This document shows positions 11,447 through 42,536 of a stretch of DNA of 64,000 nucleotides, piece by piece (position 1 is the stretch's first letter; each line of letters begins with the position of its first letter). A model generated the notes under the pieces. That model was not told the DNA's origin, made no database searches, and saw nothing but the letters and a program-made list of their open reading frames with translations. Both the position numbers and the translations under genes were made by a program. The stretch is taken from the NCBI GenBank assembly GCA_050012175.1, contig JBEKHR010000029.1:1205-65204 (forward strand), written 5' to 3'. The DNA is from Terriglobia bacterium. GTDB taxonomy: Bacteria; Acidobacteriota; Terriglobia; UBA7540.

Positions 11447-12619
11447 ATGCCTGTGAATTCCACTTCTGCTTTTCTAAAGTCCGCCTTAACCCTGGTTCTC
11501 GCGGGTGGCTTTTGTGGCCTCAGCCTGTGTCCCTCTACCCGCGCCCAGGAAGGAGTAGCCGGCGATAACCCCGTGGTCTCGAAGCCCAAGCAAGAGCCGC
11601 CTGCTGACGCCAAATCGTCCAAGAACGAGCCGCAGATTCGGGTCACGTCGAACTTGGTGACAGCGCCGGTGACGGTGATTAATTCCAAAGGCGACTTCGT
11701 TTTCGACCTGGAGGAAAAGGACTTCGAGATTCTGGACAACGGCGTGCGCCAGCGCATTGAACAGTTCAGCCTGGAGCAGCACAAGCTGCTAGCGGTCATT
11801 GTGGTGGAAGCCAATAGCACCTCGGAGCCGCTGCTCGGCGAGGTCCGCCCCCTCGGCCCGGTTTTCTCCAGCCTGATGCTGGGGCCACAGGGAGAGGCTG
11901 CGGTGGTCACTTACGGCGATCAGATTCGCGTTGTCCAGGAATTGACCCAAGACAGCAATGAGCTGGAATCCGCCCTGCGCGGTCTCGAGGCGCGTGGCAG
12001 CTCGGCGCAGTTGAATGACGCCTTGGCGCGCGCCATCTCGCTGCTCGAAAGCCAGCCGAAGGAAAACCGCCGAGTGATCATAGCTTTTTCGGATGGCCAT
12101 GACTTGGGGAGCGAAACCCGTAAGGCAGAGGTCGTGCAACGCGCCGTGAACGCGGGGATCACGATCTACGGTCTGGGATTCAGCCCGGGGCGCGCGCTGC
12201 TGGCCAGGCAACCGAAGGCTCCGCCACCGGACCCCCTGGACGTCAACATGGCACGCCCCTTGCCTCCCAACACTGCGCCCACTCCCTCGAACGAGGAGAA
12301 AACCTGGGATGTGCCCACCCTCCCGATCGTTCCACTCATCCTGGCGAGCGGGGAAATGATCCGCTCCACGGTGGCCAAGAGCGCCCTGGAGTTCTATGCC
12401 GGGTACACCGGCGGGGTGTGTTATGCGCACTGGTCAACGAAGGCGGTGCAGGATGAGCTCAACCGGATTGCCGACGAAATCCAGAGCCAGTACGAAATCG
12501 CTTACGTGCCTCACGCGCCCAGCGAGAACGGTTTTCACCGCATCCAGGTGCACGTGGACCGAAGCGGGGTCAAGGTGCGGACAAGGGCAGGATATTTCTT
12601 AGGCGGGACCAGTCCCTAG
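11447..12619 (+). CDS. secreted VWA-domain protein (acidobacterial VWFA-related family)
   Basis: Signal peptide, then the conserved N-terminal module (IRVTSNLVTAPVTVINSKGDFVFDLEEKDFEILDNGVRQRIEQF). VWA core, and a C-terminal ...NGFHRIQVHVDRSGVKVRTRAGYF. The architecture is shared with 37717-38757 and 38864-39826. Confidence 0.8.
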   Translation: MPVNSTSAFLKSALTLVLAGGFCGLSLCPSTRAQEGVAGDNPVVSKPKQEPPADAKSSKNEPQIRVTSNLVTAPVTVINSKGDFVFDLEEKDFEILDNGVRQRIEQFSLEQHKLLAVIVVEANSTSEPLLGEVRPLGPVFSSLMLGPQGEAAVVTYGDQIRVVQELTQDSNELESALRGLEARGSSAQLNDALARAISLLESQPKENRRVIIAFSDGHDLGSETRKAEVVQRAVNAGITIYGLGFSPGRALLARQPKAPPPDPLDVNMARPLPPNTAPTPSNEEKTWDVPTLPIVPLILASGEMIRSTVAKSALEFYAGYTGGVCYAHWSTKAVQDELNRIADEIQSQYEIAYVPHAPSENGFHRIQVHVDRSGVKVRTRAGYFLGGTSP

Positions 12620-37447: not shown

Positions 37448-37716
37448 GAAGAAAGTGAGGTTCGCGACAAAAAAAATGAAATTTCGATACCCGAAACTGG
37501 AAAATTAGAATGCGCGGAGACATCTGCGAGGATTATTCTCCACCTCCGGTCAGTACGGAACAACCATCGCGAAGGCAACGACGGGATTGCGGACTCACCT
37601 CAGCCGCATGTTCAGCAGAAAACTCGAGGCGCAGGGTATGTGGATGGAGTCATCTCCGGACCGGGTATGCCTATAATGGGCAAAAACGCGGAGCTTGGCC
37701 GCTGCATCTAAGAAGC

Positions 37717-38757
37717 ATGGCGAGAAAATTGAAGATTAGAGATCGTCACCGTACCCCATATCTCCCTCCGCTGGCAGGCAGGACGTACACGCCCATCATT
37801 CTCGGGGTGGTCTTCCTGGCGCTGGCAAGTGTTCCGGGTTTGAGCCAGGAGAAAGCTGAGCAGGAACCGCCGGCCACCATAAGAGTATCGACGGAAGTCG
37901 TGAGCGTGTACGCCGTGGTGGAGGATAAGAAGAAGCACCTGATCCCGGACTTGAAGAAAGAGGATTTCGAACTCGAGGAAGACGGGAGACCCCAGGAGAT
38001 TCGCTACTTCTCGCGTGAAGCTGACACCCCTATTACCATGGGAATCATGGTGGACACCAGCCCCAGCCAAGGAAAGGTGCTGGGCATTGAGCAGGAAGAG
38101 GCAAAGGCCTTTCTGCATCAGGTGATGCGTGTCAAGGACTTGGCTTTTGTCCTGCATTTTGATGTGGAGGTAGAACTCCTCCAGGATTTCACGGCCGATC
38201 AGCGATTGCTCGGACACGCCATCGATGAGACAGTGATCAATGGCGGCGCGCATGGCGTGCTGCCGTCACCCCTGCCCACGGGCGACTCCGGCGGCGCCAC
38301 CCACCTTTACGACGCCGTCTATTTAGCCTCCAACGAGCTTCTGAAGAACGAAGTGGGGCGCAAGGTACTTATCCTCCTGACGGACGGCGAAGACCAGGGG
38401 AGCAAGGTCAAGCTGCAGACCGCCCTGGAGGCCGCGCAAAAATCGGATGTGATCAACTATTCCGTCGCCATCATTGACCGCTCCTTCTATTGGGGACACG
38501 CGATGGGCTTCGGTGGGGATTCCGTATTGAAAAAGCTCTCGGACGACACCGGTGGAAGCGTTCTCGAAGTGAACCGCGCCAAAGATACCTCGGCGGCGTT
38601 TCAGCAAATTGCCCGCGAATTGCGAACTCAATACCTGCTCGGATATACGCCTACGAACACCAAGCACGATGGGTCTTATCGCAAGATCCGGGTGCAAGTT
38701 CGCAATGGGGACTACAGAGTTCAGGCCCGGCGGGGTTATTACGCACCCACACAGTAG
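37717..38757 (+). CDS. secreted VWA-domain protein (acidobacterial VWFA-related family)
   Basis: Start at MARKLKIRDRH... followed by a TM/signal segment. IRVSTEVVSVYAVVEDKKKHLIPDLKKEDFELEEDGRPQEIRYF; C-terminal ...DGSYRKIRVQVRNGDYRVQARRGYYA. The ORF track start at 37510 is judged too far upstream. Confidence 0.8.
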   Translation: MARKLKIRDRHRTPYLPPLAGRTYTPIILGVVFLALASVPGLSQEKAEQEPPATIRVSTEVVSVYAVVEDKKKHLIPDLKKEDFELEEDGRPQEIRYFSREADTPITMGIMVDTSPSQGKVLGIEQEEAKAFLHQVMRVKDLAFVLHFDVEVELLQDFTADQRLLGHAIDETVINGGAHGVLPSPLPTGDSGGATHLYDAVYLASNELLKNEVGRKVLILLTDGEDQGSKVKLQTALEAAQKSDVINYSVAIIDRSFYWGHAMGFGGDSVLKKLSDDTGGSVLEVNRAKDTSAAFQQIARELRTQYLLGYTPTNTKHDGSYRKIRVQVRNGDYRVQARRGYYAPTQ

Positions 38758-39826: not shown

Positions 39827-39954
39827 TAACCATAATAATTATAGGGACGGCAGGCGCGACAGTCAATGAAGGCAAGGCGCGCAGGCACGGCTCCGTCAAA
39901 GTCAGGGTGGTCGGAGGCACCGAAACTGGCGCCGCGATCCCATCCGCGCGGGCT

Positions 39955-40124
39955 GCGGCTCTGCCGCCTGCTGTGCGGAAAGCCTCCGGCTTTCCGGCCG
40001 AGCCCGCCTTATTCCACCTCTCGGCTCAGGCTGGAAGGCTCAGCCTTCCAGCCTGAGCCGAGGGGTGCAGGGCGGAAGCGCACGGAAAGGCAAAGCCTTT
40101 CCGCACAGCAGGCGGCAGAGCCGC
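39955..40124. repeat. 170-bp nested cruciform element
   Basis: 28-bp perfect outer arms GCGGCTCTGCCGCCTGCTGTGCGGAAAG (39955-39982) and CTTTCCGCACAGCAGGCGGCAGAGCCGC (40097-40124). A 43-bp perfect inner palindrome lies at 40020-40062, with two GGAAAG...CTTTCC mini-hairpins. Confidence 0.75.
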
Positions 40125-40251
40125 GTCGAATGTTACACCTCGGGGACTTTGACGCAACCCTGGGCGCGCGAGAAGAGCCGTCTGCCGAAGACACGCGCCG
40201 GCTTTTGCCGGGAGCCGGGATTCAAGACTGGGCGGAAGCAACGAGGGGAAT

Positions 40252-40523
40252 AGCGCCCGGGTCCTGGACCCCTTTAAGGTACGACGTCGCCCCCGCGCAA
40301 GCCTGAGCGTGTCCCACATCTCTCGCTGGACACAGCGGTCCCACGTCTGTCTTCTGCCTCTTTCCCGTGGAGAAAGGGACACGGTCCTTGCCCTCTCCCC
40401 AAGGGAGAGGGCTAAGTTTCTGACTTCTGTCCCCTGTGCCCAGCCCAACATGTGGGTAAAGACCAGGCGCAAGCGGGGGTCTACCTGCCGCCAACAGCGC
40501 CCGGGTCCTGGACCGCTTTAAGG
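40252..40523. repeat. 28-bp direct repeats (27/28 identical) bracketing a 216-bp segment at the 3' end of thiI
   Basis: AGCGCCCGGGTCCTGGACC(C/G)CTTTAAGG at 40252-40279 and 40496-40523. The second copy encodes the last residues of ThiI. The enclosed segment carries a GGGAGAGGG palindrome (40391-40411). Confidence 0.6.
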
Positions 40524-41761
40524 GCGGGCAGTAGCTTTTCAAAGCGCCGAGGCAGCCCCTCCCGCGTGGTCACCGACCCTCGCTCGAACTTGAAACTCCT
40601 TACGGTTGTGGCCTCGAGACCCATCCTGAGCAAGGCAGCAACGTCGAGCCCCGCCTCGGCCCGGTCGAGCTGCTCGGGCTGAGCAAAGATGGCAGGCGCG
40701 CGCGGCATGAAGCGAGGGCAGCAGTCCTCAAAGGGTTCGCAGGAGATCTTGTAAGTCCCGATCTGCCGGGCCAGGCGCAGTATCTCCGACTTGTCGTCGC
40801 CCGCCAGGGGGCGATAGATGGGGAAGTCAAGGCCGTGGTCAATGGCCGCCAAGTTATGCAGCGTCTGTGAGGCTACCTGCGAGACGCTGTCTCCGGTCAC
40901 GAGCCCCATCGCGTGCTCAGCCCGGGCAATCTCTCGCGCGATGCGCGCCATCATGCGGCGGTAAAGCAGCACGCGAAAGCTCTCCGGCGCTGCCGCAACG
41001 ATTTGGCGCTGCACGGCGTCAAAGGGAACCAAGTAAAGCCGTGAGGTGAACTGGTAGGGTGTGAGGGTCCTAACAATTTCTTCCGCCACGCCCCTTGATG
41101 AATCCCGTGAGGGAGAGGGGCTTCCGAAGAAGTGCGCGAAAGCAGCGTGGCAGCCGCGCCGCATCATCTTGTAGGCAGCCACCGCGGAATCAAACCCGCC
41201 GGAAAGCAAGACGACGAGCCGGCCACTCGTGACGGCAGGCAGGCCGCCGGCTCCTTCCACCCGATCTGAATAGATAAGAGCTTTCCCAGGGACAACCTCG
41301 ACCCAACACGTTACCTCCGGGTTCGTGAGTTTCACCTGGACGCTCGGGTCCCTCGCTCGCAAAGAGTCCAGGATGACCCGCCCGAGCTGGCGCTCCAACT
41401 CCATGGAATTCATGCCATATCCTGTCTCGGCGATCTTGGCGCGTACGGCGAAATTGCGCGGGTTCTTTTCCGCCATCATGGCGCAAGCCGCAGGACCCAA
41501 TTCAGCAAGCGAACTCGGAACCTCGCGGGCCAGTGCAATGTAGGCGAGACCAAAAACCCGGCGTAAACGCTCCAGGATAGCAGGCGCTGCGGATTCGTCC
41601 CCAGGGACAAGCAGGAAGCGTTCTGCAGTGCGGCCGAGCGATTGGACCGGCAAGTCACAGACACTCTGCTTGATGGCGGAGTGTAGGCGGCTGAGGAAGT
41701 AGTTCTTGTTCCCACCTTTAAGCCAGATTTCGTGGTAGTGAAGAATGAAAACTCGGTTCAT
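40481..41761 (-). CDS. thiI: tRNA 4-thiouridine(8) synthase / sulfurtransferase ThiI (no rhodanese domain)
   Basis: MNRVFILHYHEIWLKGGNKNYF (THUMP-type N-terminus) and the PP-loop LLSGGFDSAVAAY. Confidence 0.88.
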   Translation of the reverse strand: MNRVFILHYHEIWLKGGNKNYFLSRLHSAIKQSVCDLPVQSLGRTAERFLLVPGDESAAPAILERLRRVFGLAYIALAREVPSSLAELGPAACAMMAEKNPRNFAVRAKIAETGYGMNSMELERQLGRVILDSLRARDPSVQVKLTNPEVTCWVEVVPGKALIYSDRVEGAGGLPAVTSGRLVVLLSGGFDSAVAAYKMMRRGCHAAFAHFFGSPSPSRDSSRGVAEEIVRTLTPYQFTSRLYLVPFDAVQRQIVAAAPESFRVLLYRRMMARIAREIARAEHAMGLVTGDSVSQVASQTLHNLAAIDHGLDFPIYRPLAGDDKSEILRLARQIGTYKISCEPFEDCCPRFMPRAPAIFAQPEQLDRAEAGLDVAALLRMGLEATTVRSFKFERGSVTTREGLPRRFEKLLPALKAVQDPGAVGGR

Positions 41762-42399
41762 GCGCTTCTGACCGCCTTTTTCTGCTTTCTAGTTTCTGAT
41801 TTCTCTTTTGCTTCTGGGCGGCCCCGTGGTCGTTCTTTCCCCCAGCGCTTGAAGGCCTCGCGCATTTCAGGTTCGGGGTCAATGCCCAGGGCGTCGGCAA
41901 CTCGATTGATGTAGTTGAAGTAGGAAATGACCTCGACGGCGTCCAGGATGTCGCGGTCCGTGAGTCCAAATTTGCGCAGGCTTTCCACTTCTCGGCGGCG
42001 CACCGCAGCGGGCGTGCGCGCCACCCGCACGGCGAACTTGCACAGCGCCTTTTGGCGGGCGGAAAGTTTCGCCCGGCGGTAATCATGCTTGACGTGCTCG
42101 GCCAGCTTTTCGTCTCCTGTTTCCTGACGGAGATCCTCCCCGTGCGCCTCGATTCAATAGAAGCAGTGGTTGGCCTGGGAGACAACCGTGGCCAGCATTT
42201 CGCGTTCGGCGCGCGAAAGACCTGAAGGACCGTGCATCGTGGCCAGATACAAATTCATGGACGCGCACAGGCTCTCGGGGTTCAGGCTTTGAACCTTCAG
42301 GATGTTGAAAACCTTGCCGGCCCGTTTCATCGCCTTGTCATACTCAAGCTTCAGTCCGCCTGTGGCGTCCTCGGGTTCGATGGTTTTGATCCACGGCAT
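41758..42399 (-). CDS. AhpD/carboxymuconolactone-decarboxylase-family 'peroxidase-related' protein with an in-frame TGA (42156-42154) at the second Cys of CxxC; candidate selenoprotein or recent pseudogene
   Basis: MPWIKTIEPEDATGGL...LSRAEREMLATVVSQANHCFY-TGA-IEAHGEDLRQ...LSARQKALCKFAVRVARTPAAV...LTDRDILDAVEVISYFNYINRVADALGI. The two ORF-track pieces (42154-42504 and 41758-42030) are in the same frame, with no other stop between them. The stop overlaps the thiI ATG (ATGA). Confidence 0.6.
42127..42143 (-). promoter_or_regulatory. SECIS-like hairpin downstream of the in-frame UGA
   Basis: mRNA ACGGGG-AGGAU-CUCCGU: a 6-bp stem (one G-U pair) with a G-containing apical loop. The loop lies about 20 nt 3' of the UGA. 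Confidence 0.35.
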
Positions 42400-42536
42400 G
42401 TCGATACCCTCATTACGAGGCTGGATTTCGAGAATTGGGGCGCAACGCTCGTATTGTAACCCTGCGCCTCTTCCGGAAGGGACAATCCTCGAAAAGCCAC
42501 GCATCCAGCCCAGAACCCGCGCACGATTCGTACAAT

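Follow-up and report, generated by a model that had tools for sequence, protein, structure and literature searches.

Selenoproteins of the AhpD-like family (COG2128), which carry selenocysteine (Sec) in a CxxU motif, were described in 2005 from the Sargasso Sea with 27 sequences (PMC1088965). They are among the most abundant families in the Global Ocean Sampling (GOS) data, where 299 selenoproteins were found compared with 902 Cys homologues (PMC2398784). A 2026 review lists the family as 'AhpD-like protein, TIGR01926, CxxU' (PMC13188914), and a dedicated database covers it (PMC13326102). Acidobacteria have been reported to contain selenoproteins (PMC1794560, Table 2). We analyzed a 64,000-nucleotide stretch (hereafter the window) of contig JBEKHR010000029.1 from a Terriglobia bacterium of the Acidobacteriota (assembly GCA_050012175.1). 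An initial annotation of this stretch had proposed that two gene pieces on its minus strand are a single candidate selenoprotein gene, and had noted that AhpD-like selenoproteins are reported in prokaryotes, with which the literature agrees (PMC1088965, PMC2398784, PMC13188914).

By its sequence the window gene belongs to the AhpD-like CxxU selenoprotein family known since 2005. We consider it probable, at roughly 0.9, that it is one intact gene encoding a 213-residue AhpD-like thiol/selenol oxidoreductase of the TIGR01926 subfamily in which an internal UGA specifies Sec. A TGA codon conserved among relatives, a constrained 3' half and a hairpin just downstream of the UGA all agree with the proposal of one gene rather than two fragments.

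Reading frame, active site and conservation of the TGA

The list of open reading frames (ORFs) contains two pieces in the same frame of the minus strand, 42154-42504 and 41758-42030. Translation of the minus strand from 41758 to 42504 yields one frame with a sole internal stop (...VVSQANHCFY*IEAHGEDLRQETGDEKLAEHVKHDYRRAKLSARQKALCKFAVRVARTP...; in a longer extract ...VVSQANHCFY*IEAHGEDLRQETG...FAVRVARTP..., with the C-terminal end ...KAVRSA*). This agrees with the initial annotation, which had described an open gap between the pieces and no other stop from the ATG at 42399 to 41758. The complete gene occupies 41758..42399 (minus strand) and consists of 213 codons and a stop. Its only in-frame TGA (42154..42156, minus strand; local context NHCFY-TGA-IEAHGEDLR) corresponds to residue 82 and is the predicted Sec codon, at the second position of a C79-F-Y-U82 redox motif that is recognized from column conservation and from alignment with PDB structures. 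Homologues begin with MPWIKTIEP or MAWIKTIEP, and the true start is therefore the ATG at 42399-42397. A GAGGG that may serve as a Shine-Dalgarno-like sequence is located 7 nt 5' of this codon (42407..42411, minus strand). Because the gene also ends in TGA, one gene would use this codon both for Sec and as a stop.

For profile searches of the protein, Cys was substituted at residue 82. The NCBIfam model TIGR01926 ('peroxidase-related enzyme') is matched with 174.2 bits (cutoff 81.8), residues 2-178 aligning with positions 1-178 of the 178 in the model, and the Pfam family CMD (PF02627) is matched with 58 bits (cutoff 23, E = 9.3e-16). The protein does not reach the cutoff of the canonical AhpD model TIGR00777 (17.5 bits vs 191.95) or that of NF041238 (AhpD_rel_CFYUT; 74.5 bits vs 175). 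The match to NF041238 is limited to positions 152-344 of a 357-position model, which therefore represents a larger, distinct family. The solved AhpD-like structures 6k40, 3c1l, 2pfx and 2oyo are matched over their full length (E = 1e-35 to 1e-32). In the Cys homologues and in these structures the TGA column is the second Cys of a CxxC motif (NRCVYCAVSHG in 6k40, NHCYYCLTAHG in 3c1l). The placement of the TGA at the second Cys of an AhpD/CMD-family CxxC, giving CxxU, was part of the original proposal and is borne out by both the family alignments and the structures.

AhpD-like proteins have a Glu-x11-Cys-x-x-Cys-x-x-x-His proton relay, which in PA0269 consists of Glu36, Cys48, Cys51 and His55 at the same spacing (PMC3141380). 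The window protein has the corresponding layout Glu-x11-Cys-x-x-(Cys/Sec)-x-x-x-His in E67, C79, U82 and H86. The codon of the predicted proton-relay Glu67 (42199..42201, minus strand), 12 residues N-terminal of Cys79, specifies a residue that is invariant in our alignment A2. Cys79, the first residue of the CxxU (TGC, 42163..42165, minus strand), lies in a column that is at least 90% conserved in A2, and the histidine of CxxUxxxH, His86 (CAC, 42142..42144, minus strand), is invariant in A2 and nucleotide-invariant in alignments A3 and A4. The replaced Cys had initially been called the resolving one. This label appears reversed because in Mycobacterium tuberculosis AhpD it is Cys133, not Cys130, that cross-links to AhpC Cys61, making the second Cys the attacking residue (PMC6626918).

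A scan of one genome per species identified 80 loci with relatives of the gene. They span more than ten phyla, including Acidobacteriota/Terriglobia, Actinomycetota, Planctomycetota, Chloroflexota, Gemmatimonadota, Latescibacterota, Poribacteria and Verrucomicrobiota, and the closest are metagenome-assembled genomes (MAGs) of Terriglobia. A gene with 66-70% identity (L003) is found on the complete Terriglobia chromosome OY762429.1. TGA is present at the aligned column in 79 of the 80 relatives, or in 80 of 81 genes when the window is included. TGC occurs in a single locus from Calditrichaeota (L064), and more distant homologues (at most 45% identity) have Cys at this column. Whether relatives carry Cys or Sec here had been suggested as a check on the selenoprotein proposal, and the column proved to hold TGA, not TGC or TGT, in all but one gene.

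Hairpins downstream of the UGA

A bacterial selenocysteine insertion sequence (SECIS) is recognized by an apical loop of 3-9 nt on a stem of 4-16 bp, by a G at loop position 1 or 2 that is usually followed by G or U, by a loop that lies 16-37 nt from the UGA, and by a folding energy of -7.5 kcal/mol or lower (PMC13188914). The candidate SECIS of the window gene (42127..42143, minus strand) consists of a 7-bp stem, ACGGGGA/UCUCCGU, closed by the apical loop GGA (42136-42134). RNAfold applied to 42143-42127 returns the seven base pairs and the GGA triloop at -7.5 to -8.1 kcal/mol. The hairpin begins 10 nt after the A of the UGA, its loop lies 17 nt after the UGA, and G occupies loop positions 1-2. 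It thus agrees with the bacterial SECIS criteria on four counts out of four, on energy only narrowly. A hairpin with SECIS geometry at this site had been noted before, and refolding, the bacterial SECIS criteria and constraint on synonymous codons all agree with that observation. The distance given at the time, 13 nt after the UGA, is right when counted from the U but not when counted from the A.

Hairpins of this kind are rare among the possible encodings of the peptide, as only 70 of the 9216 synonymous encodings of residues 85-92 (0.76%) contain one that agrees with the SECIS criteria. The window-type hairpin is also found in nine relatives, mostly Acidobacteriota (L001-L005, L019, L036, L057 and L080). 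The codons for H-G-E-D-L-R have a pairwise identity of 0.91 compared with 0.41 at 33 other columns with invariant residues (10 relatives; permutation p < 1e-5), and the fixed hairpin codons GGG, GAT, CTC and CGT differ from those preferred elsewhere in these genes. That these codons are both frozen and non-preferred points to selection at the nucleotide level exactly on the hairpin. A second possible helix of 5 bp (UCUCC...GGAGA, loop of 11 nt) was rejected, as the closest relatives do not conserve it.

The other 70 Sec-type members of the family carry a different hairpin, GACCUC-CG(U/G)NNN-GAGGUC, with its arms at columns 22-27 and 34-39 counted from the U of the UGA. Its loop lies 24 nt after the UGA, 7 nt further downstream than the 17 nt of the window type, and a few sequences show a register shift of 1 nt. 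There are compensatory changes in five of the six pairs (21 cells; for example GAU...AUC, CUG...CAG and UUG...CAA), and none of 500 shuffles reaches the observed score. With CGU or CGG as its Arg codon, the loop has the consensus G and then G or U. We noted this family register, GACCUC-CGKNNN-GAGGUC, in most members among L006-L079; the string GAUCUCCG, which it shares with the window group, is the 3' arm in that group.

The two hairpins share the string GAYCUCCG, which encodes Asp-Leu-Arg. In about 70 members it forms the 5' arm and the start of the loop and pairs with a downstream GAGGUC, whereas in the window and the nine relatives it forms the 3' arm and pairs with an upstream ACGGGGA. It is possible, at somewhat short of even odds, that the SECIS hairpin moved along conserved coding sequence by an arm swap within one selenoprotein family. 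A neighbour-joining tree of the family is too star-like to show a single origin for the window-type hairpin. If both forms work, they would provide a natural example of SECIS remodelling under protein-coding constraint, and the SelB of these lineages may tolerate different spacings between the UGA and the loop. Two hairpin registers in one family provide a modest, testable case of how a SECIS evolves within coding sequence. The alternative register in the Acidobacteriota group is only a mildly new aspect.

Selenocysteine and other readings of the UGA

Genes for Sec incorporation are found beside several members of the family. A tRNA-Sec (anticodon TCA) lies within 0.1-2 kb of the family member in five actinomycete loci (L016, L017, L020, L023 and L026), and in L016 the selenoprotein gene is situated between tRNA-Sec and selB/selA (L016 1952-2044 and 3859-6451). 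In the lineage of these actinomycete MAGs, the family is thus part of the Sec-machinery neighbourhood.

Several observations weigh against Sec at residue 82 of the window protein or against the hairpin that would direct it. An NCBIfam scan of 30 of the larger ORFs of the 64-kb window identified no selA, selB or selD, and ARAGORN found neither a tRNA-Sec nor any other tRNA in the window. The stability of the hairpin, -7.5 to -8.1 kcal/mol, is borderline for the SECIS model, the 71 nt surrounding the site fold no more stably than shuffled sequences (z = +0.64), and an Rfam scan of the whole window gave no match at the gathering thresholds. The 10 sequences with the window-type hairpin lack compensatory changes. 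Each pair is either invariant or altered on one side only, and this invariance accounts for the absence of covariation; the support for the window hairpin is conservation, not covariation.

Of the other readings, the one that survives best is that the UGA is read through without Sec, either by near-cognate insertion of Trp or Cys or by a lineage-wide reassignment of TGA, which would yield a CxxW or CxxC product. The window's lack of identifiable Sec genes fits this reading, as does the W shown at this codon in several public entries (P0001-P0029). However, the W stems from a gene caller's table in which TGA encodes Trp: the contig encoding P0001 has TGA at the column shown as W in the database protein, and L083 has TGA under table 11. 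In the window TGA ends at least five confidently identified genes, namely ilvD, rlmN, yedA, an RND-type efflux transporter gene and the selenoprotein gene itself, and it also ends 39 of the 80 homologues. TGA thus functions in this organism as a normal stop. Furthermore, the column is that of the catalytic Cys in homologues of the Cys type, and a Trp there would be inactive, and tRNA-Sec, selA and selB adjoin members of the family. We consider insertion of another amino acid very improbable.

The public protein collections contain the family in two incorrect forms. Relatives with Trp at the Sec position (P0001-P0029; L083 322-897) were translated with a table in which TGA encodes Trp, and the window gene is present as fragments of 81 and 90 amino acids (L081 and L082 2363-3004).

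Another reading is a pseudogene, in which a recent nonsense mutation left two decaying remnants of a Cys-type AhpD-like gene. In its favour are the division by public gene callers into products of 81 and 90 amino acids and the lack of Sec machinery in the window. However, the protein is conserved on both sides of the TGA. Amino-acid identity to the window is about the same upstream and downstream (0.80 and 0.79 for L001), and compared with the four closest relatives dN/dS 3' of the TGA is 0.09-0.24 at dS values of 1.2-1.5. The 41 codons from the TGA to the first possible restart, GTG at 42030, have a pN of 0.12-0.29 and a pS of 0.48-0.75. These values indicate that the downstream half is under purifying selection and is translated past the TGA, and they agree with the initial impression that this half still resembles the family. 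A nonsense mutation of recent origin is also at odds with a TGA shared by 80 of 81 genes across more than ten phyla, with the lack of further stops or frameshifts, and with a hairpin conserved at synonymous sites. We give a pseudogene scarcely any weight.

The same data bear on a truly split gene, in which an 81-residue N-terminal protein would end at the TGA and a separate C-terminal protein would begin at 42030. A GTG is indeed present there. However, such an arrangement would leave untranslated 41 codons on which purifying selection acts and among which is that of the invariant His86. The TGA is followed by neither a start codon nor a ribosome-binding site, and the solved homologues are single chains that span both halves. 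Given the downstream identity, the dN/dS values and the excess of pS over pN in the gap codons, we regard both the pseudogene and the split gene as excluded, the latter having as slight a chance as the former.

A sequencing or assembly error hiding a TGC or TGT, which the initial annotation had named as a way in which its proposal could fail, has only the general prior for metagenome assemblies in its favour and is the least credible explanation of all, as the whole 642-nt gene is identical in JGI and ENA assemblies from different samples (L081 and L082), its thiI neighbour is listed in 55 blocks of the collection, and the relatives have TGA as well.

Genomic neighbourhood, proposed mechanism and related systems

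The stop codon of the selenoprotein gene (TGA, 41760-41758) and the start codon of the next gene (ATG, 41761-41759) overlap in the sequence ATGA (41758..41761, minus strand), as originally described. The downstream gene is thiI, which encodes tRNA uracil 4-sulfurtransferase (40481..41761, minus strand; TIGR00342, 297 bits, cutoff 264.5). The 3-kb flanks of the 80 relatives contain no thiI, and a coupling to thiI as a feature of the family was accordingly ruled out. An upstream lipA is common to the window and L004 only among the flanks of these relatives, and no peroxiredoxin gene is adjacent to the selenoprotein gene. At its C terminus the protein has a Lys/Arg-rich tail of about 29 residues (window 41758-41845; RWGKERPRGRPEAKEKSETRKQKKAVRSA), whose last codons overlap the thiI start region. 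The tail is absent from most homologues and present in a few close relatives (P0028 and P0057).

A second selenoprotein gene in the window was sought by screening all in-frame TGAs that are flanked on each side by 40 or more open codons and have a high third-position GC. Among these, the AhpD-like site is the only one that also has a Cys in CxxU-type spacing next to the TGA. The window ORFs of a size suggesting sel genes turned out to be ilvD, a pyridoxal phosphate-dependent decarboxylase gene and ada.

Other features of the window lie outside the selenoprotein gene. An imperfect palindrome of about 290 nt (window 39878-40170) is located between the thiI stop and a downstream gene for a VWA-domain protein and occurs as a single copy in the window. 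It consists of nested inverted repeats with arms of 26, 54 and 26 nt and has its centre near 40041. Folded as RNA, it forms a single long hairpin (-213.6 kcal/mol; z = -12.9 compared with shuffles), and a terminator and a mobile-element remnant are among the possibilities for its nature. A 31-nt direct repeat with 94% identity occurs at 40249-40279 and 40493-40523, 244 nt apart; its second copy falls within the 3' end of thiI. Two ORFs, 11447-12619 and 37510-38757, match the Acidobacteria-specific VWA-domain model TIGR03436 (acidobact_VWFA) with 150 and 257 bits, in support of an origin of the window from Acidobacteriota.

How Sec would be inserted and used can be proposed from the bacterial paradigm and from the chemistry of AhpD. 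The hairpin at 42143-42127, with its GGA loop, would act as a bacterial SECIS 10 nt 3' of the UGA. SelB with GTP and Sec-tRNA(Sec) would bind it while the ribosome is on the UGA, and Sec would be inserted at residue 82 in place of termination. Translation would then run on to the terminal TGA that overlaps the thiI start codon. In the protein, the active site would be E67...C79-F-Y-U82-x-x-x-H86, with Sec where M. tuberculosis AhpD has its exposed attacking Cys (Cys133). The target of the selenol's attack may be an oxidised partner, for example a peroxiredoxin sulfenate or disulfide, or peroxide itself. Cys79 would then resolve the adduct to give a selenenylsulfide.

Existing knowledge of selenoproteins is unchanged by this gene. 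Its correct annotation is a practical gain, as the public forms are two fragments or, for relatives, proteins with Trp at the active site. It also marks this lineage of uncultured Acidobacteriota as a probable selenium user, and brings a soil-type representative into a family whose descriptions come mainly from marine metagenomes.

Among bacterial SECIS elements, the paradigm is that of E. coli fdhF. It shares with the window hairpin a position within the coding sequence, just 3' of the UGA at a set distance, and a small apical loop with G followed by G or U (PMC13188914). However, the window hairpin is shorter, with 7 bp and a triloop, has no sequence similarity to the fdhF element, and shows no evident bulged U or lower stem.

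The protein can be compared with several AhpD-like systems. It shares the E-x11-C-x-x-C/U-x-x-x-H relay layout with M. tuberculosis AhpD (Cys130-x-x-Cys133, Glu118 and His137), in which the predicted Sec of the window protein corresponds to Cys133, the residue cross-linked to AhpC Cys61 (PMC6626918). However, the window protein falls outside the canonical TIGR00777, has no adjacent ahpC, and carries Tyr in place of His at an x position of the motif. The CxxC helix of 6k40, 3c1l (Mlr4105), 2pfx and 2oyo aligns with the window CxxU, although all four are Cys-Cys forms with no Sec codon. The NF041238 AhpD_rel_CFYUT (seleno)proteins have the C-F-Y-U core motif and an AhpD-like domain in common with the window protein, which matches their model below its cutoff and only in part.

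The closest described system is 'AhpD-like 1' (COG2128 / TIGR01926; PMC1088965, PMC2398784, PMC13188914). The source of the window copy is a soil-type Acidobacteriota/Terriglobia lineage and not marine plankton, and the copy is distinguished by a distance from UGA to hairpin that is 7 nt shorter than in most members, by its basic C-terminal tail and by the overlap with thiI. However, the two belong to the same hidden Markov model family, have their predicted Sec at the second position of CxxU, and share a SECIS-like hairpin just downstream with a small, G-containing apical loop (PMC1088965, PMC2398784, PMC13188914).

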